A stretch of DNA of 64,000 nucleotides from Obrimoposthia wandeli (lineage: Eukaryota): the NCBI GenBank assembly GCA_977020255.1, contig CDROCS010003752.1:124001-188000 (forward strand), written 5' to 3'. This document shows, piece after piece, positions 987 to 53,463 of the stretch. Under the pieces are notes generated by a model that made no database searches, had not been told where the DNA came from, and saw nothing but the letters and a program-made list of their open reading frames with translations. The position numbers and the translations under genes were made by a program. Each line of letters opens with the position of its first letter. Within the stretch, counting starts at the first letter, position 1.

Positions 987-3900
987 TCAGTTGAACATGA
1001 GGTCCTTATACTCCCGCAGCAAGGTCACGATGCTGGTCGAGTAGCTCGTTGTCGTTCGCACTACTCGAAACCTGTCAGCCCGTTCGAAATTGGACTTCAC
1101 CATTTCGTAGTATTTGCCGTCACTCAGAGTCAGCGTCTTCAGCAGGGGACACTTCAACCTGTATCCACAGACAGATATATAAACAATACATACATATCTA
1201 CTAATCTTACATTTATAGGACTAAAATAATGTTTACTGTTACTAATTCTTTATTTTAATTTAGAAATTCACTAACAATTCATTAAATTTTAATACAGTCG
1301 CATTAGGAAGAGAAAAAGAAGATACCAACAGTCTTTTGACCTCAATTAATCATAGAGTGAATCAGTAAGACAGTGTGTAACAAAACAGGGACAGCAAAGT
1401 CGGGACCAGATAAATTTCTACAATTTTAACTGTCAGTCAGAGCAAGTTCAGGAAACTGTAAAGGATATAGAATTCCGAGGAAGACACAATTGTTGAAGAA
1501 TCGAGAATTTTGACTGACGATCAGAGCTGACAATTTACGTAGGAGACAGAAGCAGACATAACTTAAGACAGAATATCTTTGTGTAAACTTATAATAATTT
1601 ATTAATTGCTTTTCTACTAATTCCTTAACTTGGGAGTTAACCATCACAGTCCTTTCAGTAGTAAGTAAAGTCGTATACTTGTAACAGTCTCCAAAGATTT
1701 TTTAATATATAAAAATACTAGAATGCTCCTGCTTCGTTTCAAAAGTTAATGAATAAAGTTTTAGGAGAATTAAACTCGAAAGAAGCCGTTGTATATCTAG
1801 ATGACATATTAATATGTTCGGAGACAAAAAAGATATGTATAAAATGATACAAAAATTTTTTAAAAGAAATAATTAATGTTGGATTAAAATTGAAATTACA
1901 AAAGTGCCAATTTATGAAGACAGCTAAAATTTTTAGGCCACATAATTTCAGGAAAAGGTAAAATTAACAAACAGATCCGACTAAAATTTGAAGATATTAA
2001 AAACTTTGAACGACCGAAGTGTGTAAAAAGTTACGGAGTTTCCTGGGTCTAACCAATTACTAAGGAAGATTTATTAATAACTATTCTGAATATGCGAGAC
2101 CATTAGAGAAAATATCAGGTAGCAATGAGAAAAAACCTTTGGAATGAAACATGTGAGAACTCATTTCAAACTTTAAAAAGGAAATTAATAAAAGCACCAA
2201 TTTCGATTTATCCTGATTTTAAGAAAGATTTTTAGTAAACACCGATGCCAGTTTTGATAGAATTGGTGCAGTATTATCTCAAGTAAATGATTTGGGTCAT
2301 GAAAGAGTAATATCATATGGGTCAAAGACTATGAATCCTCATGAAACAGGTTACTGTATTACAAGAAAAGAAATGCTGCCCATTGTGTGTTTTACAGATT
2401 ATTTTAAACACTATCTCTATGGCCAAAGATTTCGTCTTCGAACTGATCACAAAGCTATAACTTTCATGATTAAAACTAAAAGCCAATAACATCTCAATTT
2501 CAAACGTGGTGCAATCATCTGAGTAGACTTGATATGGTTTCAGATAACAGAAAATGTGAAAACCACTTAAATGCTGATGTACTTTCCAGAAGTAAATGTG
2601 GAACTTGTGTTCAATGCAAAACTAATCATGAAAATCCAAAAACAGGGAATCTGAAAACAAAAGTTTTATCACTTGATATCAAAGATATTGGCATAGAATG
2701 GCAAAGTAATTCCGAAGAGATAAGAAAATTAAAAGTAAATATAGAGATAGAAGATAATTATAAAATTATTAATAATATACTAATGACTAACAATGATAAA
2801 GTATGGTTACCAAAAGAAAGTATAAAAGAGTTGATAATGCATGTTCTCAAAACTCTATGTCATGCTGGTTGGAGAAAAGTAATTGAATACATTTCTCATA
2901 GATTTGACTTCGTCGAAAGATTAAAATTTATCAAAAATATAATTCAAAGTTGTGAAAATTGTAAGAAACAAAAAGTAGTGACAACAAGAACAAAAGAATC
3001 AAATAAAGAAAATTCGGATTACAGTCTTTTTCGTAGCGTATTTATAGATTTTTGTGGGCCATTAAAAACAACATACAGTGGAAAAATATATAATTGGTAT
3101 AATTGATCAATTTGATTCTAAAATTTGGAGCTCCAAGAGAAATACATTGTGATCATGGGAAATCATTTGAATCAAATTTAATGAAAGAACTAACAAATAA
3201 ATGTAAAATTAAATTATTATTTCAAGTCCATATCAGTAGGTAGATGTGGCACTTCTGGCACAAAGCCCCCCCCCTGAGGACAAATTTTTTTAAGGTCAAG
3301 TTGAGGACAAAAAATGTAGGTCAAGTTAAGGTCACGGTGAGGTCAAGATGTAGGTCATGGGAAAAATGTAGGTCATGACCTCATAAGATCATGACCCCCC
3401 CCCTATGCTCAGGAAAAATGTCTTTGTCCTGAAAGACACACATCAAGTAGGGGGATGTGTGTCTTTCAGGACAAAGACATTTTGAGCACAGTTTAAGGTC
3501 ACGGTGAGGACAAGATGTAGGTCATGACCTCATGAGGTCAAGTCAAGTTAAGGTCAAGTTAAGGTCATGACGTCATGAGGACAATGTACTTTAAGGTCAA
3601 CTTAAGGTCATGATGAGGACAATGTACTTTAAGGTCAACTTAAGGTCATGATGAGGACAATGTACTTTAAGGTCAACTTAAGGTCATGACGTCATGAGGA
3701 CAACTTAAGGTCACAGTGAGGTCAAAAATATTCTATTTTTAGTAACATTCTTTAAATCTATATATCTTTTTATCTAAAGACTGTATTAACACCAATTCAA
3801 CAAAATACATCTAGTGTGTGTGTGTGTGTTTTATAATTTAAATTAAATTATCTACTTATAAAATAAAGTATTATATAATTTGATAAATTTATTTAAACTA

Positions 3901-6900
3901 AATTAAATTAAACTATCTACTTATAAAATAAAGTATTATATAATTTGATAATCATGTTTAAACGTTCCTATATCTATCTAACAAAGACAGTCACGTACTG
4001 CATCTATATTGCAAAAACCTGCAAATTTATGTAAATAAAGACAAGTATTTTAAACACATATATTCCTTAAAATCACAAAGGAGAATAAAAATATGTACAA
4101 CACATATAAAAAGTTTATACAACCTCATCCGGGTATAAAAAGTGACCATAGGCGACTGAACGGTTTTTCTCCACCCACTTGCGCTTATCATCACTACTAC
4201 TTAAGGCAATTTTACTTAACCTTAAAGTGAAAAGTTGATGATTTAGCGAGCTTATACGTTGTTGTTGTACACGCTCGCTAACGCCACTCTCATATACGGC
4301 TAAGTAATACGAGTGCCTAATACTCGTCTGTCGGAGACTAATACCTTTCGCTCTCATCTGAGATTCACCTGCTGTAGTCTCTAGGCTATATGATTTTGGT
4401 CGTAGAAAAATCCCTTGCCTATAACTAAATAATCCCTTACTCTCATCTTTAAATTTTCCTATCGCTGTATTAAGCGTCGTATAAAGCGGATGGGTTTTTG
4501 GAAATTTCGAGGTATCCAACAGTCCATCGGCAATCATAGCAGGTAACAGTGATTCTTGAACATTGACATTATTACACTTCAAGAAAAAGCTATCAGTGTC
4601 ACCCGCTATAATTCTAATGTCGCAGTTAAATTGAACTCGATATTTCTCCAACTGCTCATATTGTAGCTCATACATACGAAGTTTGCTTAAATCTAATACC
4701 GCCTGGCCCATGTAACTAGGACGATCCAAAACAATATTTTCCTTATCCAGTAAAACTGCAATAAGGTCCGTATCGATTTCAATTGTCCTACGAAAGTGGG
4801 CTTTACTGCAATAGGTAACCAGCTTCTGTGGAGTATTACAATTCCGGAGGTTAATTCTTTTCATCAGATTCTCAATGAGTTTTCCAAATAAAGAATTCAC
4901 CTTCAGTTTATAATAATCCCGCTCGAAATCTGTTGTAGCCGCAGCTCTTTTGAGAGAATTATCCTCAATATATTTTGAAAAAACATTAGTTTGTTCAAAC
5001 TGTATTGCTCTATATACAAAATCTACCTTAGCACCAATTCTAACGTACATTTGTAGCAATCTAGAATGCACAACATAATGTTTCTTAGGGTAATGTGTTA
5101 ATAACAATTTTTTAGTCTTACACCCTGGTGGACGCTGTTTAATGGGAGCAAGGGGAAGATCGTCGAATTTATTATGAAGCTCGAAGGGAATGGATAAATC
5201 TATTTCCAATAAATGAGCGAAGCGACTACAGGATAAATCTGCTGATTTTAAGCTGGAAATAATATTCCCCAAATCTAACCGATCAGTCACCCAGGAAAAG
5301 TTACCACAAGGTAAAAACTGGGACATAGCCCACCCGTACAAATTATTTACATCAATGTACAAAAGTTCTGTACCATCGATGGCGTCAACGCGGTGTTCAT
5401 TAACAAATGTCCTACCCCCGCGAATCCCAGACCGGAAGAGTCGGTACATTTCTGGATCCTGTATTAGCTCGACTCGCACAACGGGAGCAGAAGAAGAAGC
5501 CGGACGAAGCAGGGATTTGAAAGCACTCGCGAAAGTCAGTCCTGGAAATAAAATCATTTATTAAAATCATTGTGAAAATCATTGTGAAAATCATTGTGAA
5601 AATCATTACTTTGAAAATCATCTATCTAACAAAGACAGTCACGCATCTATATTGCAAATACTTGCATCTTTATGTAATCAATAGTAACATTTATTCTTGT
5701 ATATATATATGTGTGAGTATCTAACAAAGACAGTCACGCATCTATATTGCAAATACTTGCATCTTTATGTAATCAATAGTAACATTTATTCTTATACATG
5801 TATATATATATATGTGAGTATCTAACAAAGACAGTCACGTGTGTGTCTAACAAAGACAGTAATCAATACCTACAAAGATAGTCACGTGTGTCTAACAAAG
5901 ACAATCATCAATACTTACAAAGACGTGCTGCATCTATATTGCAAAAACCTGCATCTTTATGCAATCAATAGTAACAAGAACTACATTTATTCTTATACAT
6001 GTATATATATATATATATATATGTGTTAGTGTCTAAAATTAGAAAAAACTAGTAGAATACAAACCAGGAATGGAGAAGAAATTGAGTGGCTCCAATCCAT
6101 CGTCAGCAATGGCCTTGGTCCGGAATGCTGTAAACACGTCTGCTAGAAGGTAGATGTCCATCTTCATATAGACCAGCATATAGTCCCAGAGCGATGAGCA
6201 GCCGCTCTGAGTCCAGACCATCTTCGCCATCTGATATTGTGCTGGCTTGATCTTTTCATCCCACTTTGGCGGTAAGCTGGTGATTGCACGAAGAGCAGTC
6301 TCTGATACTGCCATATCGTATGGGAAGATTCCCTTGGCGCTCACCAGATGTTGCGGGAAGACCGAATGTGTAAGAGGAGTCACACCCAGGTTTTTCTAAG
6401 CTGCTGTTCAAAAATTGAAGGGAATCGATGAAACGTATACAGACTCCTCCAATATACACCATCATAGCCTGGAATTTCTCTGTTGATTGAGGTATAACAG
6501 ATACATTCCAGTCGGGAAACTTGCATAGTGCGTGCTTAAATATGTGGTGCATGTCATAACCCATAAGATTGTGAAAAATGACGGGAAAAGATCGATTGAT
6601 TCTACTTGATAAGTTGCATTTCGTATGCGCTGCTCCCAGGTATTCGCCAGTCATGTGATCGTGATCTCGAACGTTGTTTGCGAGTTTCTTCTTACACAGA
6701 TAACAGATTCTTGCTGCATTGAAACTCGATACCTGTTCCTGTGTGAGTTGTCGCATCACCTCGATCGCATGCTTCTTGTACCATGGGAGTACAACCTCTT
6801 TCACCAAGTCCTCTAATTTCTGCAAAAAGGATACCACACAAGATTCTCCGGTAAAGACCGAGTAATCATGTGTATACCCTCTCGTGGCTGCAACGGGAGA

Positions 6901-9900
6901 CATGAGCATATCGGCCGAGATTGGAAGTTGAATCTGATGGTGGATTCCATGTGGCGGCAGCACAGCCTCAAAGTCCGCGTAAACAGCAAAAGGCGGAGAA
7001 ATCGTTTTTGAAAAGTCCTTAAACTCAATATGCTTCTCTGTAGGCATTGAATAAAGCGTTGTATGATCTAAATTCATCCTACAGAGCGGAACGTGTTTGG
7101 CGTAACTTATCGGACTACGGAATCCATGAAGACACTTATGGCACCAAGTACACCGAATGCAATTAGATACACCTTTGTTCCTATAATTAAGCAGCCTATT
7201 GAGTTTAGGAATACCGACATAATGAAAATTATCATTATTTTCTAAAAGGAGAAGATTGATTGGCTTAGCGTCCGGGTTTGTGGTCCTGTAAATGACATCC
7301 ACATAGGGATTTTTGAAGATATCCCCATCTGTTTGCACATTAGAGAACCTATTGAATGTAAATACGTTGATTGAGAGAGATGTATTCTTTCTCTCAAATC
7401 GCGGTATATTACATAGACGCATCGGCATCTCATTCTCATCAAAAACTAATTGACTCAAAAGGGCATCATATTGCTTAACCCGCTGAGGATTAGTACGAAA
7501 TACGTCGCGGAAAAGTATAGATAAGATACTATAAAGAAAGCAGAAAGTGTTTGAGTTCTGCACATTGATAACGCAATGTGACAGTGCTAACTCAGATGGA
7601 GTAGGTATATAACTATAGATAGTTCATTGTCGTTGTTTTAGTCACAACAAACGAAATCTCCAGGAAGCGGTTCACTACCCAATTACTGCTACTTTGAGAA
7701 TAATTCTCAATCTTCTTGTTGATCCCATCTACTCCCGCATCTATAAACCCCTCATCTATGGGGAGCCCTCTATTGGAAAAATTCCAAGCGCGTGTTTCTC
7801 CAATATTGGAAAATTCAACACGCACCCCGAATTGAACCTTGCAAGTCGCAAACTTGCTGACTGTGTCCCTTAAGCTAGTCAAAAGGGATACAGGAACTTG
7901 TAAATCGATGAGATTGTCATTAGAAACATCTAATGACAATGTCTCAATCGTACCCCGAAGACTAGTCTTACGCTTAACAGCATTAACTTTGGAAAACTTC
8001 GCAACAGAGCTACCTGAAGTGGGCATAACACTTCTCTTGCGGGTAGATGCTGGTAACGGCGCGGGGATCATACCAACTGGAGGAGGCATAACTGGAACCA
8101 TTGGTGCAGCAGATGGTGGTGAAGCAACTGGACTAGAAATTGGAACAGCAGCAATTGGGGTAGATACTGGAATAGTAGCAGAAATTGGGGCAGCAATTGG
8201 CGAAGCAGCAACAACTGGACCAGCAACCCGAGAAATAGTAGCAGATCTATTCTGAAAGATGGCCTTCTTGCCACGTTGCTGGAAATGACGAAGATGGACA
8301 CGATGACGCGCCACAAACTCCAACCAATCAATCTCCTCCACGGAGAGACATACTGGACATACGTAGAATTGTTGTCCGTTGAACTTCTGTCCAAAGTAGC
8401 TCTTCATTTTTCCGTCACATTCCTTGTGACTCTCCTCGAAGCATAATTCTTTGTTCATATTGCAATTCTAGAAAGAAATAAATTAGCAGAAAAAATAACA
8501 ATAAACTTACCATTTTCAATTTCGTTTATAATAGGGAATTATTTGTTGATTGATGCTTGCTTATATACTATTTTCGAGCTAGTATTAAGCCAATCAGATT
8601 CATTCATTATTTAAACCAACCAGATTAATTTAAAACAGAATAGTTTACTGACAGATGTGAGTAGTTGAATTTTCATTAATATTTAAATAATCCAAACTAG
8701 CTGCAAAGCATTTCTTGTATGCACAATGCTCGCCATGTTTAATATATGGACAATTGATATTTGATGGATTTAATTGTTTTAATGTTTTCGAGTAATTTAT
8801 CACTCTAAATTCAGGAAAATATTTATTGATTGTCTTTATTTTAGCTCCATTATTTTCATCGAAACATAGAAAATTGATTTGGATACATCACAACAACGTT
8901 TTATTTCCTCAGTTATTTCTTGTATCTTGAAATAACTATTACCATCAACTAGTTTTAGTCGATGGTAATGCTTAATGAGATATCTATTTATTTTTCTTGA
9001 TTTTCTATTCATCATGTCCCATATGGGTTGCATTTTAAAAACATAATGTTTAGGATAGAAGATTGCATCCACATCCATTATACATAGTTCTTTTATTACA
9101 AATTCAGTATTATTATCAATAAAAGCTTCAAAATCAATAAAATAAACAGACATTTTTATAGCAATAATTTTATTTGATATTGTTTATATCTATTGTTTAT
9201 GCTTTAACCAAAGCAGACAGAGTTGTCCACATGACTGTGTTAAAACATTTTGATAATGTTTCTTACTAAAATGTACTTTCTTTCCAGAGTCAAGTACTGT
9301 AGATACTAATTTAGAAGGGTAATATATCCCAAAGGGGTCAAAAACAAAGATTTCATTTTCTTTAACATGTATTGCAATCCAATGTTCACCACGCAAATTA
9401 GATGAATGTGTATTGATTACATATCCACCTAGTCGAGTCAAAGAGGGGATGTGATCAAGGCTGTAGACTCCATTGAAACGCGAACCGAGTAGTTTTCTTC
9501 CGCTTTTTGTTATCTCGTCCGAACTAGAATATATATTAATTAATAAATTCAAACTGACTTACTTCATTTATATATCTTCTTTATTGTTTTCATTCTGTTT
9601 ATACTAGTACTGTTCCTCTCTTGGTAATTTGAACCTCAGAATCGAATACTCCATAGATTATAATATTAGTAGGGTGTTCAAGTGCTTTTGAAAACTTGAT
9701 TTCTACTTTCAAATTTCCCTGTTTAGGGATTTGAGCTTGATTAATATTGAAATCAGGAGAGAGAACAAATGTGAACAGTGTATACTTGTCCTTGAAATCA
9801 GTCATTGAAATTCTAATATTAGCATCCTTATCCAAATGACCAAGATTTCTAATTAAAGATTGCACATAAGAAAACACATAATCATCGTTTTCAAAGTCAT

Positions 9901-12900
9901 TCGTATAAGATTCTTGATAATCAATATTTCGTGCAAGTTTAATTGAACTCACATTCATGTGTCCAAATTGAGAAACCTCATTTTTAGACTCACCTCCATA
10001 GGTAGAAGTGTTTTGGAAAGCAATTAAAACAAAGTTTGGAAGTTGCATATCACCAAAAATCTGATCCTTGTAATAAGATAGTGCTCCCGTAGGGATAGCG
10101 TGAGAAACAAGATTAGTTTTTCTAATAGGATAACATGCATTTTGCTTCTCCAACCCCATTCGATGTGCAACAAGTACAGATGGTTTCACCTTTACTCGTC
10201 GAACCAGCAGTTTTGCTTCCGTAATCTCAATTGCGGTTTTAATAGTATCAGCGCAAACAACACTAAAACCTACTGGATTTCTCTTCATTCGAATATGTGC
10301 ACTTACACCGGGTAAAAGATACTTTGGTTGCATAAAGAAATCCAAATGGAGACTCCCACAAAGTGACAATACTTTAGACTTTGCAATCGAAGCAATTCTT
10401 CTTTTTTCGTCATTGTCAAACCCAATTGCATCAAGATTAATCAATTTCGTATCATTACCGTAATTCAACAATGTTTCAATCATTGCTTTATGGGTGTAAC
10501 TAGTATTATTTCCCTCAACTTTCACATTATTGAGACTGAGAATCACATCCTTGAAAAGAGTATGCAACATGTAATTAGCTGATTTGATATCCATACCATC
10601 ATCCAAATCACCTCCACCTTCCTTTGTAACTTTCAATTTAACGAGAAATAAACTATCATTCAAATCAAGATATTGAGTATTGGATCCATTAATATTGAAT
10701 TCTAAATCCGGAGAAGATGTCCCGTTAACCGTATTTGTTGGAAATATTTCTTCAAAACTAGCACTATCAACCACAACCTGAGGTATAGGTTTATCGAATA
10801 TACACAATTCAGTTTTAGCACAACTCATTACTTAAAAATTGTTCCACCTAGTTTCAAACGTTTGTTTATACCCGATGCTTTAGATGTTTTCTTACGTTTA
10901 TAACCACTTCCCTTTTGAGTTTTCTTTTTCAAAAATTCAGCTAGACTTGATCCAAGGCTGCATCCTTTAGTGTGGGAAGAAATTTCTCATCACCAGACAA
11001 GTATTTTGATCCAACATTAGCAATAAATTTCCCGAGTCGCTTGAGTAGTGGGAAAGCAAAGCGACCAAAAACCTTCATCCATCCTGATCCATACTGTTTT
11101 CCGGCAAAATAAGGCAAATCACCTCCTTGCATCGGTTTACTATACGCATCGATTATACTTGAATCAATCATATTTTTCTAAAATGTATTGTTAAACTTGT
11201 TTTAGCTCCAAATGAAAATTTAATTAATCTTCCTGAATCATCCCGAATGTTAACTTCAATATTGTTTATAGAAGAGGAACTCACAGGAATATACATTGGA
11301 TTTTCAATTGGGATATGTATAATATCTCCATACTTGTGCTTTTCCTGTTGAACCCAAATAGATTTTATTAATGGAAGTTTATTTCCACCCACAAATATCG
11401 GTTCAGTAATACTTGTGTAAATATAAATCTGATTATACGCATTACTTAGCTTTGCCCGATTAGATGCTCGGAAAACTTTATTAAGATTTTTAAAACTGTT
11501 TTCATTGAATCCTATAATTGTAGCTAAATTTTTATTCATATTTATTTATTTTACATGTGGTTTCAATTTAAACTTAATTATCTCCTTTTTAACATAAAAG
11601 CTTTCAAATATATTATCAATATTTTTCATGAAATATTGACAAAGACTTTCAACATTGGAAAATAAGCAATCATTTTCGAATGCATACTGCTCACGTACAT
11701 CCTCTTGATTATAATGATGCATCTTTAACTTTAATGTCGGTAAATCATATTTTTGATTTGGTAATTCCGATTCATAAAACATACTTTCAATAGGAGCTTC
11801 TTTCATACCGTAATTTAATGCTAAACTTTTATTATCAATTTCTAAATTGAAAGCTTGTCCCGTAGTGCGAATTATACAAATTTTGTTTTCGCCGCTAAAG
11901 TAAATAACATATTCACTATTAATTGGAGTTAAATACTTGACGAAAAATTCTCCATGTTTCATTTTCACACCAGCTTCAACTTCAGTTTTTATTCTTTTCT
12001 CCGCAACATAATCTATAATTGACCCTCCTTTAATGGATAGAGGAGAGTAATTGAAAGAAAATTCCGTCAGAGCAGCTTCCCAATGCCCAGGTAAATTGAT
12101 TGAGCTTTGATAATCAATACTAAAACTATTAGCAGTATTATTCGGCTGAGTTAATGGTGAACCATTACTTGGTAATACAACATACATTGAGTTCATTCTA
12201 TTTGAGAAGCTAATATCCAACTAGGTTCAGTATATCCATGCCACTTAACATGATATTGTTTATGCTTTCCTCTACCTTTTGTCTCTAAAATTTCTTGGAT
12301 TCTATATACATTTGGTTTCTCAGGCCAGACTTGTAATTCCTCATGATAAAATTTACCCGTGATTACATTATTGGTTTCATCCTCAATGAAATACATTACC
12401 GGCATACGTTTATTATCAATTTTAGTTATACGAAATACTTCATCGCTCCAATTCTCTTTGAAATTCTTTATAAAAGGAGTAGTACTAATTTGAGAAATAC
12501 GTACATAATCACCAACTTTATACTTGGGTTTCCGCGCAACTTGACTTTGATTACGGCATTGCCAAATTTCCATAGCATTCTCATCTGTAACATCAACGGG
12601 TCTCTTTCGGTCTAATGATGAGTGTTCACTATGATTGTATGCATGTATTATTTGAGGTAAAACAGTAACCCATGACTTATTTCCCTGCTTTGTGAAATAC
12701 TTTTTCAAACGATCTCTCAATGTTCGATTAAAACGTTCAACTAAAGCGGCTTTATATTGGGAAAATACTGAGTAATGATTAATGTTAGTTTTTCAATAGT
12801 GTTTCAACATGTTTATTATAAAACTCCTTTCCACTATCCGTTTGGAAATTTCTTGGTTTTATTTCTTTAATCAAAAGCTTCATTGCGGCTAAAACATCGG

Positions 12901-15900
12901 TACCAGACTTGGACTTTAATGGAATAGCTCGCGCGAATCTGCTAAAGACATCAACACAAGTTAAAATATATCGATATCCGTCGTTAATACTCGCATACGG
13001 AATCATTTCCATCAAATCTGCTTGCCATAAATCATTCGGGCCGCTCGTTTTGTATGATCTCGTTGGGACGTCTCATTGGTTTGTTTAAGCTGTAAGCTAA
13101 TTGATTTCTCAACCACGCCTGAGTTTCCTGCTTTGTCTTCTTTGACTCTTTTGCTAATTTTGAAACCCCTGTGTAACCGACGGGATGACTTGGATCGAAC
13201 CATATTTTCTCCATTGCAGCAAGACGATTTGATTTTTAAATTGAATTTAGGAATAGATGGAAGTGATCCCATATATAAATTCATATTATTGATTCGAATT
13301 TATGTTTATAATCATCGGTTTATTAGTCTACTAGCAAGTGCACCAACTATTGAGCTAATAATTGGTACGAGAAATCCTAAAAATCCACCACTTTGCTTAT
13401 AAAGCAACTTACGTTTACCGATTCGTGTTTTGGCATGAAACAAAGCAAGTAGAGGTTTCTTATGCCGATTCAGGTTAGCCTTGACAATTATTTTACCAGA
13501 AACTATTTTCTGTATCATATTAAGTAAATCATCAATTACAAAAGTAGGGAATGATTTAAGAATAGCTGGGCGGCGAATAGCAGGTGCACGCATGAGAGAA
13601 TTGAAATAGGCAATACTCCTAGATTTCTTAACAACAGTTCTTTTCGATTTTTGAGCAACCATTTTCCTTGCACTTAAAACTGATTTAATCAATTTTTTAA
13701 CTTCGGGTTTAACAGTTTTCTTTTTAAAATTCATCTTCTCAAAACTGGTTTCTTTGTTTGTTTATAAACGGTTATTCCCGATGGATTGAATACATCAGTT
13801 CTATCTCTAAAGTCATCGGGACAATCTTGAGTAAAATCAATAAAAATGTATCCATGAGGAATAGTAGTTGCATCTTGAAATGAATCAATTAAAAACTTTC
13901 TATTATTCGGGTAAGCTTGTCTTGAAACAAAATCAACAACCGTCTGATCACGTGGATTCTTGAAGAGAACAAGGTAATGTACATTTAAATTACGAGTTCT
14001 ATGGTTCCCTCCTTGATGAAATAGATTTTGTGTGATGAAAATAACAGTTACTTCCCGATGTCGTGCTATTTTAGTGAATAAATTATTGAAATCACTCTCT
14101 TTATTTGCTTCTTGATATAAATCATCAATAACAATAACATCATGTCGTTGTAATCGCTCAGACCAATTATCATCGAATCCATTAATGACTTTTATATTTT
14201 TGATTTTCTTAAACTCTTTACTGGTTAAACCAGCTTCTCCATCTCCTCCCTGATGCCAGTATATTTTATTAAACTTAAAACTAAAGTATTTATTATTTTG
14301 CAGTAATTTACATACAAAGTGTGTTTTCCCACTACCACTAGGACCTACAATCTGAAAAACTGAATTATTTTTTAAGTTCATATTAAAAATATTAGATTAT
14401 CGGGATAATGTTTATAAGACAAAACTATTTAAAATATTTTATTACGAAACATCCAGCAACAAACAATAAAAAACTCTTCTCGTAGAAAAAGCTCCTTTTC
14501 TCTTCTTTGTTTGCGAGTTTCTTCTGATTGTATCCCTGAATGAGAAGATTGACTGCCTTGTCGTGCACCATTCTTCTTACGTGCTCCTCCAGGGGTAGAT
14601 TTGAGACATCAATGAGTTGCAGGACATCTGGTTCTATGACATTCTTCGAGATGAAGCTCTTCACCGCCTTGTCAACATCTTGATTGAAATAGTTTTTAGA
14701 CATAATGATGATGAAGTAAAAAGTAATCTGCTTATATACTATACATCTGAAATCTGATTGGTTAATAAATACACTGACTAATAAAGACACTAAAGACACT
14801 GACTAATAAAGACACTAAAGACACTGATTAATAAAAACACTGATTAAAGATAAAGACGAATAAAATTTACACATAACGATTAAAAATACGTATTTGATGA
14901 AGCATAGCTTCATTAGGAGCAGCAATAGTCCGTTTAGCTTTAACAAGATTCGAAGCAGCAGTAACACCAATCGAATGAGATAAAAATGCAATATCAATGC
15001 AAGCAGCATGTAAACTACCATAATGACCACATACTAAAATCTTACCACCATTTTCGATAGTTTCTTTAATTATATTATTAGTCTGTTTATAATACTTCAT
15101 TATTGTTTCTCCTAATTTTGAGTTTACAAAGACAGAAGTATATTTTAATTTCTTATAAGATATTTTATCCAGTATAGATGTATTGATTACATGAGTGAAA
15201 TTGGAGTTCAAAATATTAGTTTCATCAAACCCATCTCGATAATTACCAATATATAATTGATTTACTAAAATCTCACTCATCGCTGTTTTGTTTAACTTTT
15301 CTACATTAAGTTGAGCAAATCTAGCACTAAAAAACTATCAAAAAGATGGGTCATGTGGTTCATTTCCATACTCGAAGCATGAGCTATTATGGGTTCCATA
15401 AAAGCCAAAGCATTTAAAAAATCTATCCGTCTCTTATCTTCAATAATTGGATCTATAATAATTTCTTCTTCTATCGTCACTTCTTCTATCGTCACTTCAT
15501 CAATAGTTTCTTCTCTTCTTATAACTGTTGTTGTTGTTGCTGGTGGTGATGATGTTACTGATGATGTTGCTGGCGATGATGTTGTTGGCGATGATATTGC
15601 TGGTAGTGATGATGTTGCTGGCGATGATGTTGCTTCTGGTGCTGAATTGATTTTCTCCATTTTATCAATTCCGAGTCAATTTAGTCTTATATATTAAACA
15701 AGGTTAGATTTCATTGGAGCATCAGTTTCATCATATGATTTGATTGGAGTATTATTCAATCTTTCCATTGTACTTAACATCTCATGTAAATGTAGTTGAT
15801 GACGTAACCTAAAGAGTTAAATAAACTACATATAAATATTACTCATGATTATTTTTCCTAATTAATGCATTGAGAATAACTGAAGCAAGATCTTTTAATG

Positions 15901-18523
15901 CATCCTGAACCTCTTTACATTCAATAATTTCATCCATTTTATGATAAAGCAAATCAAATATTGTTTATAACCCATGAAAAATCTATTTTTAGACCACAAC
16001 TATTTGCAACATTACAACGTTTGCAACTATTTGCAAGTATTGACATGTGATGTCTTTGTCTCTAAGATAAATCTATTTTTAGACCACATTACAACTTTTG
16101 CAACATTACAACTATTTGCAACTATTTGCAAGTAATGACATGTGATGTCTTTGTCTCTAAGATAAATCTATTTTTAAAACTATTTGGTTTAGGAAATAAA
16201 TAACACAAGTGTGAAGATCTATATTAAACAAAATACATTCAATCAGATACTCATAGTTTAAAGATTTAACACCGAGTATCATAATCTTCCCGCTAGCAAA
16301 AATGTTCACGCATAGGGGATTGTATTTGACGTATCGAAGTCCCGGGAAGATTTCTGGCTCGTAAACAGCTTCCGATCCCATACTCTTGCTCATCTTGTTT
16401 AGGTTTATTGATGTTTCTAGATTTCTGCTGAGACTGATTGATTGGATTCTTTCGATTTTTATATCAAAAGGAAGACTGCTTTCATCCAGCACTGTTTTGC
16501 AACCCATTATTCTGCATGTACCTAAATTATAATTATATATAAATGTAAAAATAAATTACCAGATTTGAAAATGATAATAGTGTAACCTTCACACTTGAGT
16601 CGATACTGATGAGGCTTCGAAGTCCGAAATGGTAAGTGTTGGTTGTTACTTACAACCATTCCCTTGTAATTAATATTCACTAATTTGATATTGTGAAGTA
16701 GCATTTCTGATTATTATAAACTGATTTCTTCTATTTATACAATTTGAACATCTATTTTTAGATTTGCTTAATTGCCTATGCTATGAAATCTAATATTTCT
16801 TACTCGTCTAATGATAATTGTCTTGCAATATGGACATGTAATAAAACGATCTGAACATTTAATACACGTGTTTAAGTGACCGCATGGTAAAAGTGCCACG
16901 GAAATCGCATCGCTCATGCAAACAACACATTCGGGATTTGGTAAGAGGTACTCGAGATAATTTATCCGATGTTTTGATTCAGATTTTATTTCTAAAGACC
17001 TTAAATCCGTTATAAACTCATATATAGAATCATATTTGTTACCGAATGTTTTAAACCTATTAAGTAAAACGGCTTTGATTCTATCATGACTGTAATCACG
17101 TTTCAGCAAAACTATTTGACGAGTTTCCATCTGAGCATCAATTTCATCATTACTAATATGATATTCAACAATACATCCGTTCTTGATTCCCATACTAAAT
17201 GCTTTACAATCTCGAGTATGAAAGATCAGACATAGTATCAATAAGGTCAAGTCGGGGTACTGCTTTCCGACAGAAACAACATCGATAAGAATCATTCCAA
17301 ATATATACATTATCGAAAATCGATAATGTAGGTATTTCAATACCATTAGAATAATTATTGCGCACAATAACTACTTTATCCATTGGAGTTGTATCAAAAT
17401 CAATTTGGGTGGTGTTGGAATCAATTATTGGTACGTTTGAAACATTCATTTTCAAAACAAACGGGCATCTTGGGAAAAATAGCTGATGCTGTTTCATTGG
17501 TTTCAGATAGTACTCCCATCCCGATATTCCTCCCTGACAGTAAATACACTTTACATTATCTTTCGAATCATCGTGCTTGTAAAATCCTGCTTTTGCTAAA
17601 GCTTTCTTAAAGCTTTGGAGGATAAACAATTGAATATTTCAATTTATAATTGTCAATATGAATTTCGAAAAGCTATATCTACCTATGCATACATATTATG
17701 GATATGAAATGCACTTTTTGAAGAAAGCTCATAACTATAATTTTATTTTTCCTGTCAACATCGAGCCGCTTAAATTTGATTTTGAAATATCAAATTTGAC
17801 TTCTGTGGATAAAGAGAGAATCAATATTCTCCTGACTCAATTCGGAATCAACTATGCGCTTCAGGAAAACAAATTCGTAATCAAAGGATCAACTGCCACT
17901 TTCAAGCATGAGAATGGAACAATATACGAAGCACCTCCTCCTAAGCTAGAATGGATTCTCTCAATCAGAATTCAAGGATGCAAGATCGGGCCCAGTGGAT
18001 TGGAAACTACGATATGGAAAATAATTGATGCTGTTAGAGTTGACTAATAAATTTTTGTGTCTTTATTTGTATTATTTTATATATATAAAAACAATAGTGA
18101 TACTTTAATATTTATTATGAAAATGACTAAAAAACCTACTAAATCATTAAAGACTAAGGTTAAAAAGACTATGAGTAAAAAGACTATGAGTAAAAAGAAA
18201 ATCATGGAGGGTTTGGGTATTCATATGATGGCAGCAAATCTTTTAGGTAGATGGTTTGGTGGAGTTGATAAAAAAGCTATAAAGCACAAAAAGAATGTGG
18301 ATTATTTGAGAGGTATACAAAATCAGAAACGAGTGCAAAAAGGAGATGGTATACAAAAAGGGGATGGTATGCTTGATATTTTTGTAAAATTAGATAAACT
18401 TACAAAAGCATTTGAAAAGGATCCTAGTGCCTATCTTGGTCCAAAACTAAACATTTTAGCAAACCAACCAAAAACTTTGTAATTACATTGCAATATAGAT
18501 GCAGAGTGTCTTTGTTAGACACT

Positions 18524-18580
<57 letters not shown>

Positions 18581-21500
18581 AAGAATAAATGTTACTATTG
18601 ATTACATAAAGATGCAAGTATTTGCAATATAGATGCGTGACTGTCTTTGTTAGATAGATATAGGAACGTTTAAACATGATTATCAAATTATATAATACTT
18701 TATTTTATAAGTAGATAGTTTAATTTAATTTAGTTTAAATAAATTTATCAAATTATATAATACTTTATTTTATAAGTAAATAATTTAATTTAAATTATAA
18801 AACACACACACACACACTAGATGTATTTTGTTGAATTGGTGTTAATACAGTCTTTAGATAAAAAGATATATATATTTAAAGAATGTTACTAAAAATAGAA
18901 TATTTTTGACCTCACCGTGACCTTAAGTTGTCCTCATGACGTCATGACCTTAAGTTGACCTTAACTTGACTTGACCTCATGAGGTCATGACTTACATCTT
19001 GTCCTCACCGTGACCTTAAGTTGACCTCATGAGGTCATGTCATCACCGTGACCTTAAACTGTGCTCAAGGGGGGGGGTATGCTCAAAATGTCTTTGTCCT
19101 GAAAGACACACATCACCCTACTTGATGTGTGTCTTTCAGGACAAAGACATTTTTCCTGAGCATAGGGGGGGGGGTCATGACCTCACGAGATCATGACCTA
19201 GATTTTTCCCATGACCTCATGAGGTCATGACCTACATCTTGACCTCACCGTGACCTTAACTTGACCTACATTTTTTGTCCTCAACTTGACCTTAAAAAAT
19301 CTTGTCCTCAGGGGGGGGCTTTGTGCCAGAAGTGCCACATCTACCTACTCATATCATCATTCAAGTAACAGACAAGTTGAAAGACAATTTCGGACAATCA
19401 GAGATTCATTAAATTTAACAATGAAAGATAAATGCTCTAAAAATTGGGCTGACGTTCTTCCAGAAGTAGAGTTCTCTATGAATACTACTGTACAAGCAAC
19501 AACAAAAAGAGTCAAATGGAATAATATTTGGATTTTTTTTTCTTGAATGGTTTGAAGAAAAAGAAAGAGACGAAGACACATTTAAAACCTACAAAAACAG
19601 AATTAATCAAAATAATGAAAATAACTTAATTGAAAATAATTATCGACATTTTAATATCGGCGATGAAGTATTGTTAAAAATATATGTTCGAAATAAGGAT
19701 GATAATCGCTAAGAGGGTCCTGGAGCCATAGTAAAGAAAATACATAATAGAGCTTTCAAAATAAAATTTCCCAACGAAATATGTAAAGAAAGGAATATAA
19801 AATGAATAAAACAATTTAAAACACCAAGGGAGATCTAATAGATTGTGTAAACTGTGGTTTAAGGACCTACGGTCTTTAGGTAATATGTATACTGGTGAAT
19901 GTGTGATTGTGTGGTATGTTTATATTGCTCAATAATGAACTATATATATCCTCAGCACAACAATGAATGTTGTTTATTTATTAATATAGTTATGCCTGAA
20001 CTTCAGTCTTCTAACAAGATTCTTTATAAAATACAAGACAAAATCCAACACATGAACCTTCACATTTTGAAACTACACAGGAAAGGCCTTTCACAAAAGT
20101 CCTATATCATTAAAAACTCACAACTTAAAAGCTTCCATAAGAAGTGTAATAACTCTAGTCTCAACAGTTTTATAGGTCCTTTAGTGGGCCCGATAATTTT
20201 GACACATTAAATGGAGCTACTTAGTCGTTTTTTCTCATGAAACCCAGGGAAAATATAGACGGGTGTAATCAGAGGCGGACCCAGTTTTGATAGTCAGGAG
20301 GAGTGAAGTATCTTTTGACTACATGTTCATTTTATTTTTCCAGATTTTTCATGTTTGATTGTGTGTTTCTTTTAATTGGTTAATTTAATTTATTCAATGT
20401 GTATAGTTACAGGATCTGTAATTGTATTGGCTGTTATTTTTATTTTATCTAAAGCTGCTTATTTGAAAACGGTGGCGGTTGCTAGCAAAAAAAAGTTTGT
20501 CTTCTGTTCACTTTTTATTTATTTCGTTTTTATATCCCGAGGTTGTTCATAGTGTTAGTCTTGGTGTTAATTTCAATTTCAATGTATCTTAAATATTAAT
20601 TATTACATAAAATAAAATTACCTCATGAACTTAAACTAATAATGGACATTTTGCATTTGTTTCGAACTATCAAATAAAAATGATTCCATATTAATCATTA
20701 TCTTGTAATGAGCTACGTTTTAGTCAATAAAAATATAAAAATAATATATTCTAAGATATTTAAAATTTCACTGAAAAAAAACTTATACACATTTAGAATA
20801 TATTTAAATTGTCTACAGTACATTATTTATTGAGTGCCCTATAATAATAAAAAACATTTTGAAAAATAAAAGCACTGATTATTTAGATTGATCTTGAAAT
20901 CTAATAATATTTTTTCATTTTGTCGGCACATACTCTGCTTACTCCCTAACTAGGTTCGCCACTGGTTGTAAACTACTTGAATTTCTTATATTTTCTAATG
21001 TAATATTTTGTTGCTTAAGGGGTTAAGATTTTGAATCGAAGTGACACTATTTCATATACCTAATATTACATTAGACGATAAATTTGGGAATAATAGGTCA
21101 AATTTGTCAAAAGTGTATATTTGTATTTTGTTATCCATAATGTTAATGATACAGGTCCAAAGTGTTGGAAGGGCTAGGTTTCAGTGTACACCATGATAAG
21201 AAGACACACCTGATGTGATCGATGAATTTGCGGCTCTTGTCGCTGAAGCGGATCGTGTCGGGGTCCCACTGGATCTCAAGGGCCTCTAGCTGGGGACAAT
21301 TCTGTGCAAAGGCCTCCACGATCTGGTCGATGTGCACTCGCGTATTGTACTTGTAGAACCATCCATCAGCAGCCCCCAGGACGCAGATTCTAACACGGCC
21401 AAAGGCCATCATAGGACGATGAGCATATAACACTGTTCATTATTATTTATATTCTAGGTGTTCTGAGTTGAATTTGATGAATGACTTATGATGAAAGATT

Positions 21501-27500: not shown

Positions 27501-30500
27501 AGTCAATAGATATAAGTCACCTGAGACACCACAACAAAAGCACATTAGGGGATTTAGAAGCAGCAATGTGAAAATCACAGAATTTGATATTCTGTGAATA
27601 CACCACAATAACTGAGTGGATTTAACCAACGAAAAAGGAAACAGCAGTATCACAGACATTACAGAGGTAATTTTGGAAATTCGATGGCGAAGATTAGTTA
27701 AGAAGACAGACAGCCGATCACAAACACAAAAACCTGAAGAAGACAATTTGAAAAAGAGACACTTTAAGACGATTTGAGAATTTGCAAGATTTGAAAAAGA
27801 TGAATGCACGCTCAAGATTGAAGGGACAAGAACCAATCAATGAAAGAAAAACCTACATGGACCAAGGATTCCTCGAAATTAAGGATATTCAACGGAGTCT
27901 AACAGATCAAGATGATCACGAGAATTTTTAACTTCTACCCTTCTGGCTTTGTTAAAATCACATTATCCTGTAAACGGCATCAAAAACAGTTGGCCCATAC
28001 ACATCTGGAGTTGCGGTCATTGTTCTACAAATATTACGTTGTTTACTCTTGTATTTGTATTTTGTGGGCAGCATAATTAGTAGTTTTTCTGTTTGATATT
28101 AAAAATAAAAGATTGTGAACCTTTGATAATTTGATTTAACCTGTTTACTGAACTAGTAACGACTAATTGTATAACAAGCATTAACACAGAAAAATAAGGA
28201 ATTTAGATCATAGAATATTGCTTTGGATAGGAATTAATTTGAGAATAATAGTTTGATAAACAAAGATCTGACTACGTAATTTATCTAGAATATTCAATAT
28301 ATAATTGAGGCAAATATAATACATTAACCTTCAAATAGTTTTTGAGACTAAAATTATATGCCGTACATACAAGTCATATCGCTCTAAAGAATTCACGCAC
28401 TAGAGGCTTTCCTAATAAGTATTTCAACTCTAATCTCAACATTGATAAAAAATTGCTTCTCAATTTAAATTTGAAACTGTATAACAATATATGACCAGAA
28501 TAAACTAGAGTAAACTTACATTGTCTGTAAAGAAGTCACAGTGTCCGACAGACAGATATTTCAGATGGTGGATCCGCAACAGAATATCTTCCAAGCAGGC
28601 ACTAGACAGCTCAGTAGAAGATATATCCAGTTCTTCTATGCGTGTCTTTAGCCAATTTACAGATTTCATGTGGTTGTCTTGCAGTCCTGAGAAAGTAAAA
28701 CTGAGTAAAGTTTGCTAGCGTGCATTACCACAGTGTTGCATTATCAGGGATCGCATCTTGTTGCATCTCTCCAGCAGTAACCGTAATGACGATCCTTTGA
28801 CCTTCAAACAGAAGCTGAGAGAAACCGTCTCCAGATGAATGCAGTTATTGGCCAAAAGCTCCACATGACTGTCGTCTACAAATCCGATGCCATACAAGTT
28901 GATTACTCGCAAGTTTGGAGTATGCGCCTTGATTTTACTGATGTTGATAACCTTAACACAAATTGAAGCCGCTTATAATACTAAGTAGTATATTTTCTGT
29001 TAAATTACAATTTAAATTTGATAAGAATTGCTTACTTCGTAAATTTCTTCTTCTTCTTCACTAGACATCTCGAATGTTCCTGCAATTTAAACGAGTCAAC
29101 CAGATATTTCAATAATTTTTTATTCAAATAATTTTTAAATTTATTACAACATATAGTCGCAGTATTTTGCAATTGAGAATACCACCAAATATCAAATATG
29201 ATTCACAATATAGGAAGACAATTCAAAACTGAGAAATGAGCCAATTATTTCCTTTTCAATAAACTATGAATTTGATGATTTCCATGATTCATATGTAGCT
29301 CTTTGCTATAAATCAGCAGTAAGAATTGACTTTTCATTTCGAGGTTGTGTTTTATGACGAGTGAGCGTAGCGAAGGACTTCTAAACAATACTAAGGTGAT
29401 AAACGTCTTTTACTGTCTTTCAGAAAAATCTATTTCTTTAACATAATCTGAAAAAATTAAATTTTCCTGCATATAACAGTTTTTCCTGACGGGGTTAACA
29501 CGTTTTCTTTTGAGTTTATTTGTGTGTAGTCGGGTTTTAAAATAATATTTTAAAATTAAATGAATGTTGAGATCAATATTTTATTTTAACATATGAAATA
29601 GAACTATAGATTTTAACATAATTTTTCAATTCTTAACCAAAGATTATAATGCAGTTAGAAATCGAAACATTTCAGAAGTAAACCAGTGCTTAAAGCGTTT
29701 TCCGTATTTTCTGATTGAATATTTTCATCTATAATTTCTGTTGGAATAGTTGCACATACTCGGCTAAAACAATAGCCAGTATAATAATCGTTTAATTCAA
29801 GGAACATAGCAACTTCTTCAGAAGTAAGCACAATTGTTCTAATGCCCATTAGATAGACAGTCAATCTGTTGTTGTTGAAATGTTAAAATATACGACCCAT
29901 TCTCTTTGTTTCATTTAAATAGAAAATGACATATTCATCATGTGGCTCCTTGTTTAGATACAGAATATGTTACCCAAAGTCCACTATTAATATCAATATT
30001 ATGCTGTCATATTTATGCACAACGCAGGCCACCAAGAAGTCTAAATACATACGATTGTCTTGTGTGTTAAATGTTTATCAATATTAGGTTTACGGGTTAA
30101 ATATTCTTCTCACTGTTCATCTGTAAATATTGCAGCTCCAGTTGGAACATATCCACCTTGACAGCACTGGAAAAGCTTATTTAGACCTGGCAATATATCT
30201 TGTTGTTTCTTACCTCCACGATCTTGGTATTTCGTAATAAGTTTAAAATATGAGGACTAAATGTTTATAAAAGATTGAGCGTCAAATCTATGGCACTCGC
30301 ATGGTACTTGTGACTATTTTGTTGCCAGATTTTGTATTGGCTGTAGACTAAAATTTTCTAATTAGACACTTATGATAATGTTAAAATGTTAAAATGATGC
30401 TAAAGTTTAAAATTGGCTTTAAATAATAACTTTTAGCTTGGAAATTAAAGTTTGGTTTTTTCTTTAATTATCTACAATGAAAAACTAAATGTTCAGAAAA

Positions 30501-31012: not shown

Positions 31013-32146
31013 CTGAAGCAAATGGAATGGATGAGATGAGAAGTTTACGGCCATATATGTGTTTCGGGGATGGAGTAGAAGGTACAAATTCAAAAATATA
31101 TTTAATTTGAACAAATCAAATTGAGTTCACTAATACGAAAAGATCAGTATTGTTAAAGAAGAATAGGAGATCAGAAACTGTTAATGAAAACTTTCTATAC
31201 AAACACAGTACTTGTCCTTTATAGTGTGTGGAATAACTATGCCGCCATCGTAATGTGGGTTTCACACATTAGATATAAACCACATTATTCATCATACAAG
31301 ATTTTCTTAAACGGTTACTAAGTAATATAGTTGTTTCTTGAATTTAAAATTATGTAATTTTTTCTTTAATCGGGGAATATCACAACTATCATAGTTGAAT
31401 TACAGTTAAAAATATATCTTTGTATAATTGAATAAAAACTATTTAATTTATTTGTTACTTTTGTAGTTTTTTATGTGCAACGTAAAACTGTTATTATCTT
31501 AAATCATGGTTATCACCGGTAGAAGCTCTGGTACATGTATCAGTACCAAGTACAACTGAAATATACCCTAAAACTTCGACTATGGTGCGTGCATTTTAAA
31601 AAGAAAACAGACACAGAAAACTAAATTTTGTTAAAAATTGGTGATGCACATTGTATAATATAGCTCGAGGAATTACTACATAAACCACAACATTGAGTTT
31701 TATATTTATTACATGCTAACGAGCTCCTTCTTTGACACATGTTTTGGCATTTAGATAAAGCAACTACAGGACCTAGCTTTTTCTCAGGATCAGATCTCTC
31801 ACATCAGGAACGAAACTACATATAACACTGTAGGAACCTTTATCTCCATTAGAGTCACTGCCACGTGTTTCGTGAATGACCTGAACACTGATCAGAAGAA
31901 TCAGTGGCAGATATGTCAAGCTGTCGGTAAAGGATTACGAAAACGGGACCACTCGATATGGTTGACAACTGTTTGAGGTTTTTTTGGGGTGAAGGGGAAT
32001 CGTGTATTATTGCAAACTTATAATGACAAAACGCATTTGATTTTAATAAACGGTTTTAGCAAATTATTCTATTAGTCCATTGTCATCTTTTATAACCTCA
32101 AGTAGGTTAAAATAAAATAAAATAATTGAGCAATTTTCACTCCATC

Positions 32147-51949: not shown

Positions 51950-53463
51950 TGTCTATGGATTGTCCATTATCAAATATTTAGCTAGATTGGATGGAATTTC
52001 ATTCACCAGGTACATGACTGCATTTTGTAGTTTGGGAAGTAATTTATCATCACCGGATAAGGATTTTGATCTAACATTACCGATAAATTTCCCAAGTCGT
52101 TGGATTAGAGGGAAAGCAAAACTTTCATTCATCCAGATCCATACTGTTTCTCAACAAAATAAGGCAAATCACCACCTTGTATAAGTTTACTATACGCATT
52201 GATTATACTTGAATTACCACTATAAACAATATTTCGATAATGCTTTTATTAAATATGAATGATCAAGATAGAGCAAGCACATATATAGGTTCTGGTAGTA
52301 ATTTATAGGCTAATATGGATTATAATATAAATAATATTAAACATATTCATCCATCAACGAAAACAATAACTAGACCTACGCGAGTAACCGAAGAACGTAA
52401 GCCCTTTAAGGATTTGACTAATACTAAACGATTTTCATAAACAACATTATTAACATAATTAGAATCGAACTTTAAAGGTTAAACAATTGAATATTTGAAC
52501 TTTAAATAGCAAATATGAAATTCGAGAATCTGAATTTCGAAAAGCTACATCAGCCAATGTTCAAATATCACGGATATGATATGCATTTTTTTGAAGAAAT
52601 CTCACAGCTATAATTTTATTTTTCCTGTCAACATAGAGACGCTTAGATATGATTTCCAGGTATCAAATTTGACTTCAGTGGATAAAGAGAGAATCAATAT
52701 TGTCTTCAATCAATTCGGGATCAAATGTGAGTTTCAGGAAAACAAATTCATAATCAAATGCTACTAAATGCTACTGTTGAGAATTAAAATATTCCAATTT
52801 GAATTTAAATCAATTTATCAAAGTGCCCACAGTCGAACAGCGATTTTTTCAGTTATATCCAGTTCTTATATTGTGCTTCGCGGTAGGAAAATTGTTCTTT
52901 ACCACCTTTAGATAAAAATATATAGTTTTAAAGAAAGATACTAAAAATAGAAATATCCTCAAAAATACATGTATTTTATAGGCTGAGTCCTCATTAGGTC
53001 ATGACATCATAAGGTCATTGGTTGCCACGGTACCGGTTGTCATGGCAACTTGACCTTGTCCTGAAAATCACATAGCAACATGACTATGATCTGATATTGA
53101 CTATTTGTGTAAACAGAGCAAAATCATGATTCACATTAATTGGAAAAAAACTTGAGTAAAATTTGTATTTTTGTCGTATAATTTTTTAAAAATATTTAGA
53201 AACTGTGAAAAAAAACTTTCTGAACCCTCTTGTAAAATACAAAACGGACCAAAATATTTAAATTTGTAGGTTATATTATAATTTTTGATTTCCATAAATT
53301 TTAGGCATTGCTTTTTCGTTTGTTTTATAGAAAAATACGTATATATGTAATAAAAAAAAGTTGATTTGTTATTTTTGTAGTTATATAATACTTAATTTTA
53401 AAGGAAATATTAAATAAAATTAAAATTAAGGGGGTGCTTTGTTCCAGAAGTGCTACATCTACT
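51950..53463 (-). mobile_element. Internally deleted remnant of a sister Maverick (cupiennin-like fragment, 129-aa ORF homolog, right terminus)
   Basis: 51970-52215 aligns with 10930-11165; 52490-52767 aligns with 17623-17890; aggtcatgac repeats at about 52995-53015; ends ggggtgctttgttccagaagtgctacatctact, like 19312-19349. Confidence 0.88.

Follow-up and report, generated by a model that had tools for sequence, protein, structure and literature searches.

The 64,000 nucleotides of Obrimoposthia wandeli analysed here (contig CDROCS010003752.1, positions 124,001 to 188,000 of the forward strand; the whole stretch is called the window) contain a Maverick/Polinton element which encodes a small TATA-binding protein (mini-TBP), an inhibitor of apoptosis protein (IAP) and a phosphatase-like protein of the DUSP type without its catalytic motif (pseudo-DUSP). 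Mini-TBP probably serves as a factor for the late promoters of the element itself, whilst the IAP and the dead phosphatase would be exchangeable cargo which the element likely has in common with giant Burro-like retrotransposons in this genome. Sister copies of the element are represented by 30 sequences, taken from throughout a list of 102 capsid matches which holds the best-scoring copies only. The features on which this reading turns are as follows.

16157-16704, minus strand: mini-TBP, two exons with a 38-nt GT-AG intron at 16522-16559, 169 amino acids (aa) predicted (Pfam)
16768-17609, minus strand: IAP with BIR, degenerate second zinc site, UBA-like region and RING; 333 aa in sisters
14867-15660, minus strand: pseudo-DUSP, a Ser/Thr-rich leader and a DSPc domain without CX5R; one open reading frame (ORF) of ~261 aa in sisters, broken here
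13731-14381, minus strand: packaging ATPase of A32/FtsK type, open frame (Pfam)
14410-14416, minus strand: TATAAACR motif, 35 nt before the ATPase
15969, 13766, 13310, 11270, 10902, 10870, 9603, 9188 and 8530, minus strand: starts of further TATAAACR copies
15091, minus strand: TATAAACR inside the DUSP

Mini-TBP and the TATAAACR motif

Mini-TBP belongs to a conserved family of proteins of ~150 aa. Searches returned 38 relatives, and 61 clusters at E<=1e-30; a residue census was taken over 83 relatives and read against the canonical TBP repeats. A Maverick gene lies near 36 of 50 metagenome mini-TBP loci, rising to 16 of 17 where the locus is at least 3 kb long. On this distribution mini-TBP is an old Maverick gene, present in distant Mavericks. 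An Atlas search with a mini-TBP relative returned TBP clusters only. Families A and B differ with a non-synonymous divergence (dN) of 0.27 and saturated synonymous divergence (dS), and dN between families ranges from 0.27 to 0.45.

The AlphaFold2 model of a relative without an intron, which shares 54% identity with the family B protein, reaches a pLDDT of 96.7 and superposes on human TBP over 146 residues (Z 13.9, root-mean-square deviation 2.3), giving a two-repeat saddle from which the N-lobe helices are absent. Mini-TBP thus shares with cellular TBP (PF00352; PDB 5fur, 7o4i) the saddle, the YEPExFP stirrup and three of the four intercalating phenylalanines, but is shorter and has lost the first stirrup Phe along with the N-lobe helices. 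The stirrup E-P-E is kept in 81, 80 and 81 of the 83 relatives, and the three Phe in 81, 82 and 83. Changes on the DNA face are equally fixed: Ser (83/83), Met (83/83), Arg (81/83) and Asn (83/83) replace residues at the canonical DNA-facing Asn, Thr, Val and Leu positions. Since the canonical contact set of two Asn, two Thr and four Phe is missing, as is the N-lobe basic helix, mini-TBP is a divergent variant rather than a general TBP. In cellular TBP the canonical residues contact DNA, the 3' half of the TATA box being recognised by the N-repeat; the stirrup binds TFIIB, and the N-lobe helices bind TFIIA, Mot1, TAF1 and Brf1. Host TFIIB was found in separate exons only. The host genome also contains several duplicated Brf1-like loci of the TFIIB family (L166-L169).

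An unbiased count of 6-mers in 74 upstream regions ranks ATAAAC first, with 45 occurrences against 7.5 expected. The packaging and virion genes begin 30-45 nt after TATAAACR. ATAAACR lies upstream of the ATPase in 13 of 13 cases (12 of them at 31-36 nt), of the major capsid gene in 6 of 7, of the pX-like gene in 8 of 10 and of a conserved 169-aa ORF in 4 of 4, counts which are not independent because the elements are related; the controls for these genes gave 0 on the opposite strand and 0.2-0.7 in shuffled sequence. By contrast, ATAAACR precedes mini-TBP in none of 8 element genes and none of 21 metagenome starts. Strict motifs within the window number 11 on the gene strand versus 1 on the opposite strand, and 10 of the 11 lie ahead of a gene start. 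Canonical TATA boxes lie at -33 to -36 ahead of the IAP, DUSP and TBP genes of family A. An Alpha-type Maverick of the same genome has no mini-TBP match and carries the motif at 0 of 10 ORFs; three unrelated viral contigs carry it at 1 of 36. As the motif precedes packaging and virion genes but never mini-TBP, and is absent from the Maverick lacking mini-TBP, the protein is most likely a viral late-promoter factor and not a reprogrammer of the host. The simplest reading of these sequences is an early gene, mini-TBP, whose product would read late promoters.

The IAP and phosphatase cargo

The cellular-type genes are all recovered by Pfam (TBP, E=1.3e-12; DSPc, 6.7e-12; BIR, 3.1e-15; RING, 6.4e-12). 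The IAP has a BIR of the form CX2CX16HX6C and a C-terminal RING. In 17 of 18 element BIR loci the IAP has TBP as its neighbour; these loci include families whose capsid identity is as low as ~50%, and for this reason the IAP is considered old in the Mavericks of this host. The DUSP P-loop lacks CX5R in all 29 sequences read and likewise in family F; HCX5R is present in the retrotransposon DUSP and absent in Maverick families A, B and F. The Maverick DUSP is therefore predicted to be catalytically dead. Sequencing error as the source of the dead P-loop was rejected, the motif being absent 29 times out of 29. Even so, DUSP genes of families A and B differ with dN 0.37 and dS 0.97 (dN/dS ~0.4), a sign of purifying selection.

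A single ORF of 4633 aa in the same genome holds Gag, CCHC, Env, protease, BIR, RING, reverse transcriptase, RNase H, integrase and an active-site DUSP (DSPc). Over 320 codons the IAP of the Maverick aligns collinearly with the BIR-RING region of this ORF (37%), scoring 152-158 bits, against 68 for the best IAP in the PDB and 26-30 for two host BIRs. The Maverick DUSP scores 53-72 bits against the retrotransposon DUSP and 36-38 otherwise, and the leader before the domain is common to both. IAP and DUSP thus appear to be swappable cargo, likely shared, whose closest relatives found are domains of the Burro-like polyprotein. Length-limited protein searches with the IAP and DUSP gave nothing at E<=0.001, the IAP had no match in the viral contigs searched, and a UBA family search on its UBA-like region matched nothing anywhere.

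The 150 DSPc matches listed for the genome have nearly equal scores, many lie inside very long frames, and copies of the 4633-aa type take up the list. The 4633-aa ORF itself (G000:C399:424240-438138; L156-L157) has a second, degenerate DUSP after the integrase. Elsewhere, metagenome Mavericks carry a ubiquitin-conjugating enzyme, a RING protein and a leucine-rich repeat protein beside mini-TBP (L083:225-719, L091:1710-2168, L094:1918-3327).

A proposed expression cascade and its rivals

It is attractive to consider a four-step scheme. Host TBP and RNA polymerase II would first act at ordinary TATA boxes (TATATAAG/TATAAATA, in many cases accompanied by CCAAT) in front of mini-TBP, IAP and DUSP, and the introns would be removed by the spliceosome. 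Mini-TBP would then bind TATAAACR through its rebuilt N-terminal half and recruit host TFIIB through the conserved EPE stirrup; the loss of both N-lobe helices would let it escape the regulators which dock there. Thirdly, it would switch on the ATPase, capsid, protease and integrase genes. Finally, the IAP would block the death of the producing cell, with the pseudo-DUSP acting as a substrate decoy. A broader proposal, that Beta-type Mavericks run a herpesvirus-like early/late programme through a single 150-aa viral TBP which reads TATAAAC and brings in host TFIIB and RNA polymerase II, and that planarian Mavericks took their IAP and phosphatase decoy from giant enveloped retrotransposons, is put forward tentatively, as somewhat doubtful in its entirety.

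A number of points weigh against a late-promoter role with shared cargo. The cascade is drawn from DNA sequence. Motif and mini-TBP are confounded with lineage, since the controls comprise one Alpha family and three unrelated contigs. The promoter split is impure, the late motif also occurring on the family D IAP, on 2 of 8 genes for a single-stranded DNA-binding protein (SSB) and on pPolB. Within the family the signal of selection is weak: the ratio of non-synonymous to synonymous polymorphism (pN/pS) is 1.09 for mini-TBP and 1.28 for DUSP over all variants, and shared variants stand at 2:3 and 1:2, respectively. The remaining points bear on two of the rival explanations.

The Maverick and the Burro-like retrotransposon may each have acquired IAP and DUSP from the same host genes on separate occasions, without any exchange; this is considered rather unlikely. 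BIR-UBA-like-RING is a cellular architecture, and the Maverick BIR is more canonical than that of the retrotransposon. The BIR and DUSP trees have long branches, are unresolved and give no direction of transfer. Host orthologues were not found in the searches, and an intron-split multi-domain host IAP could be hidden among the element copies. On the Maverick side, the metagenome DUSP which retains its active site is a distant match at 24.7 bits. Against independent capture, two unrelated genes are both common to one polyprotein, the similarity extends through non-domain linkers, and IAP and DUSP are intronless whereas native genes of the element have introns.

Alternatively, TATAAACR could be read by host TBP or a Forkhead protein, with mini-TBP employed elsewhere, for instance in binding the terminal repeats or as a TFIIB decoy. 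The core of a normal TATA box is TATAAA, variants of the box are open to binding by host TBP, and ATAAACA is also a Forkhead consensus; moreover, 5 of 30 sisters have spread without TBP and IAP, and TBP-less copies keep the motif. Such copies could, however, be served in trans, and the fixed spacing of 31-36 nt suits a core promoter rather than an enhancer. The C of the motif has persisted in elements whose capsids are ~41-56% identical, mini-TBP genes are free of the motif (0/29), and the Alpha Maverick in the same nucleus is without it, so that this explanation is considered quite improbable.

The original prediction, in which the three genes form one host-manipulation module and the TBP-like protein reprograms host transcription, is more doubtful still: all three genes do occur together in 20 of 30 sisters, the TBP-IAP adjacency is almost constant and more than 1400 gene copies could titrate TFIIB if expressed, but distant Mavericks have mini-TBP without IAP (0/50 metagenome loci) and mostly without DUSP (1/50, active site intact), the element genes bear a matching promoter motif, and an SSB gene lies in the same region. 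What stands of it is a set of real, Pfam-supported genes, including a phosphatase without CX5R, and their frequent co-occurrence in sisters; the TBP, by contrast, is an old Maverick gene while there is turnover of IAP and DUSP (TBP and IAP are missing from 5 of 30 sisters, and 2 of 30 have the arm of another family without IAP), and the promoter evidence favours late transcription of the element itself. Secondary insertion of the three genes was rejected, as the block has no terminal repeats or target-site duplication of its own and is flanked by repeats of the element.

Parallels can be drawn with larger viruses. BFVD matches include virus-encoded TBP folds, comparable to BcRF1/UL87/ORF24 of beta- and gamma-herpesviruses and to the TBPs of nucleocytoplasmic large DNA viruses (NCLDV). 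Herpesvirus late genes are preceded by a virus-specific TATA variant (TATT). The TBP-like factors of herpesviruses are large and act in a viral complex, and those of NCLDV serve a viral RNA polymerase. Unlike these viruses, the 16-kb element encodes the TBP piece only and no polymerase.

The class of element and the IAP cargo are already known. Beta adintoviruses, or group 1 Polintons-Mavericks, share the terminal repeats, 6-bp duplication, divergent pPolB, rve integrase, ATPase, adenain and pX-like gene (PMC8502044, in the parts consulted). IAP and Bcl2 homologues are noted there (section 3.2 for the IAP); an SSDBP label is applied to adintoviruses, and a 'TBP' label appears for MELD viruses in the legend to Fig. 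5. The same parts of that paper describe neither a conserved family of mini-TBPs nor a motif at late promoters, and likewise no pseudo-DUSP, no introns and no example from a planarian. The planarian giant Gypsy element Burro/GYPSM1 has the order Gag-CCHC-ubiquitin-like-BCL2-like-Env-PR with BIR and RING, matching the 4633-aa ORF; the account of Burro, as far as consulted, mentions no DUSP and no Maverick link (PMC6431247), whereas here BIR-RING and DUSP occur as separate genes of the Maverick, and the DUSP lacks the catalytic motif. TBP and TATA are not mentioned in the consulted parts of PMC11131425 and 10.64898/2026.10.13.758929. The literature covered gave no account of a Maverick mini-TBP, its promoter or Maverick-Burro exchange, a scope outside which Repbase entries and bioRxiv supplements may bear on novelty.

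These sequences strongly suggest a TBP-promoter switch that is testable. A conserved viral TBP with a matching promoter would provide a concrete switch through which to address capsid-gene expression and the self-sufficiency of Mavericks as viruses. The animals concerned lend themselves to routine knockdown and RNA-seq, and the family has ~2000 copies. The apparent possession of common cargo by a Maverick and a giant retrotransposon is unexpected. If true, it would represent gene exchange between two unrelated classes of selfish element converging on cell-death control, with genes passing from a retroelement to a DNA virus or the other way within one stem-cell genome.

The element, its genes and its copies

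The element spans 3235-19349, with termini AGTAG...CTACT and CATATC on both sides as a 6-bp target-site duplication (TSD), confirming the ends originally proposed. Its terminal inverted repeats (TIRs) are ~761 and 714 nt long, with 659 matches and 18 mismatches over 677 aligned bases. It is inserted in the pol remnant of a long terminal repeat retrotransposon (1725-3234 and 19350-20016), and a paralogous remnant (59479-60192) supplies the empty site, at ~60081-60192, bearing CATATC once. Both ends are resolved in 2 of 30 sisters, each again with a 6-bp TSD. Long AG...CT TIRs, the TSD, pPolB, rve integrase, packaging ATPase and adenovirus-type protease identify a Maverick/Polinton. Of the full core set claimed, Pfam supports rve (7.8e-13), pPolB (DNA_pol_B_2, 2.4e-8, in exon 1 of a sister), the ATPase (Pox_A32, 3.8e-6) and the protease (Peptidase_C5, 4.5e-4); the major capsid protein is putative, assigned from position and relatives alone. 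It has no match in the PDB and no relative among the viral contigs or phages searched; one of six capsid relatives gives a weak double-jelly-roll-like match (E=0.041). The pPolB is divergent from the pfam03175 (Alpha) type, with a best BLAST E of 0.91 against the Alpha pPolB of the same genome, and by this criterion of Beta adintoviruses the element is classed as a Beta-type Maverick. The Pfam scan found no OTU-like domain N-terminal on pPolB and no GasderminX or cupiennin accessory gene, only the pX-like motif. The remaining features are listed below.

3229-3234, no strand: left TSD CATATC, in single copy at the empty paralogous site
3235-3995, plus strand: left TIR, 21 AGGTCA/TGACCT hexamers inside (sequence comparison)
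4115-5541, minus strand: pPolB exon 2, polymerase motifs, Beta/divergent class (Pfam)
5542-6064, minus strand: pPolB GT-AG intron, 523 nt here (junction comparison)
6065-8458, minus strand: pPolB exon 1; unbroken sisters encode about 812-815 aa, the frame here is broken (Pfam, sisters)
8645-9153, minus strand: conserved 169-aa ORF, no Pfam match, broken here (sisters); we take it to have an exonuclease-like look
9190-9567, minus strand: adenain-like protease, 39-nt GT-AG intron at 9524-9562 directly after the ATG (Pfam)
9599-10828, minus strand: putative major capsid protein, 409 aa, open frame (position, relatives)
11168-12196, minus strand: putative minor capsid protein; sisters have two alleles (340/342 aa), and the frame here stops prematurely
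12193-13235, minus strand: rve integrase ending in a chromo-like tail; sisters encode 342 aa, the frame here is broken (Pfam)
13312-13734, minus strand: basic protein, pX-like motif at the C-terminus (Adeno_PX E=0.0066)
14425-14703, minus strand: 92-aa ORF with host-type CCAAT/TATATAAG upstream
15694-15937, minus strand: small gene of ~70 aa, 34-nt GT-AG intron at 15809-15842
16004-16160, no strand: direct repeats; another copy precedes the IAP in sisters
17658-18047, plus strand: SSB, predicted T7 gp2.5/Enc34 type (structure prediction)
18117-18482, plus strand: basic ORF
18636-19349, minus strand: right TIR (sequence comparison)
19350-19355, no strand: right TSD CATATC

The introns, the SSB gene and the promoter motif had been overlooked previously. 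GT-AG introns occur in four genes and are, on comparative support, of spliceosomal type. The 38-nt mini-TBP intron is seen at 23 of 23 junctions; its position coincides exactly with a gap in the alignment of 34 intronless TBP relatives, and in families D and F an intron likewise occupies this site. The protease intron is 39 nt in 28 of 30 copies; it recurs at the same position in two metagenome relatives (L070, L083) and is absent from two others. The small-gene intron is found in 26 of 26, and the pPolB intron, of 115-523 nt, at 21 of 21 junctions; family B has another intron in this position. Four runs, all contigs of one sample, cover the stretch evenly, with no joint at the predicted introns among the matches listed, and are uninformative on expression. 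A further ATG-GTAAGT micro-exon and intron ahead of the pPolB start is possible at ~8480-8530.

The SSB model has a pLDDT of 94.3 and middling structural matches (Z 7.2-7.6); Foldseek against the PDB gave nothing at E<=0.001, with the Enc34 SSB top-ranked. The SSB usually lies beside mini-TBP and, on this prediction, would belong with the replication genes and not with the host cargo. Copies of a repeat marked by AACAAAG and TTGCAA words lie in the pPolB intron (5542-6064), at 16004-16160 and at 18500-18660, in subterminal regions and before cargo genes, and may form an enhancer for early genes.

The window element is a decayed copy of a young, high-copy family and not the complete, intact provirus first proposed. 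Compared with sisters, seven genes are broken: pPolB (near 6395 and 7617), the 169-aa ORF (~8862), a 120-aa ORF (~10945), minor capsid (stop at ~11546), integrase (~12788 and ~13070), DUSP (~15332) and IAP (~17226), and ~575 bp including the IAP start are absent at 17609/17611. Exact 20-mer counts in the 1.35-Gb assembly, which assembly redundancy could inflate and mismatches lower, are 2006 for capsid, 1802 for DUSP, 1450 for IAP and 1425 for TBP, with controls at 0. Median divergence from the commonest letter is ~0.3% in sisters, which indicates a young sample, itself biased towards young copies, and 0.5-1.7% in the window copy. Where TBP and IAP are missing from sisters the loss joins two direct-repeat copies; to judge by these junctions, recombination between the direct repeats removes both genes. 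In the two sisters with an arm from another family the polymerase is also replaced (TBP 66%, DUSP 50%); one more of the 30 is internally deleted and two are cut short. A pPolB exon 2 truncation is common to at least nine sisters.

Several minor observations may be added. Two sisters (c10, c11; L019-L022) have an inverted duplicate of the cargo arm in place of the polymerase arm. The two minor capsid alleles (window 11614-12029 versus sisters) are ~44% identical N-terminally in copies otherwise ~97% identical, which suggests module swapping. Maverick expansion is reported in the consulted part of a study of Dugesia (10.64898/2025.12.11.693146). The Alpha-type Maverick (G000:C2184:63872-78177; L177-L178) has a PLA2-like/integrase ORF, and several of its starts follow T-run/A-run leaders rather than TATAAACR. 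Hexamers of the AGGTCA type, arrayed in both TIRs (3235-3995 and 18636-19349), resemble nuclear-receptor half sites. GC content is ~30%; taken with the Burro-type element and the reported Maverick expansion in Dugesia, this suggests a planarian host, probably a dugesiid. Pieces of other Maverick subfamilies lie at 1-350 and 51971-52836 of the window (an ATPase; a 120-aa ORF with SSB), and exons at 21143-21412 and 30485-31126 on the minus strand look by eye like an F-box/leucine-rich repeat host gene.

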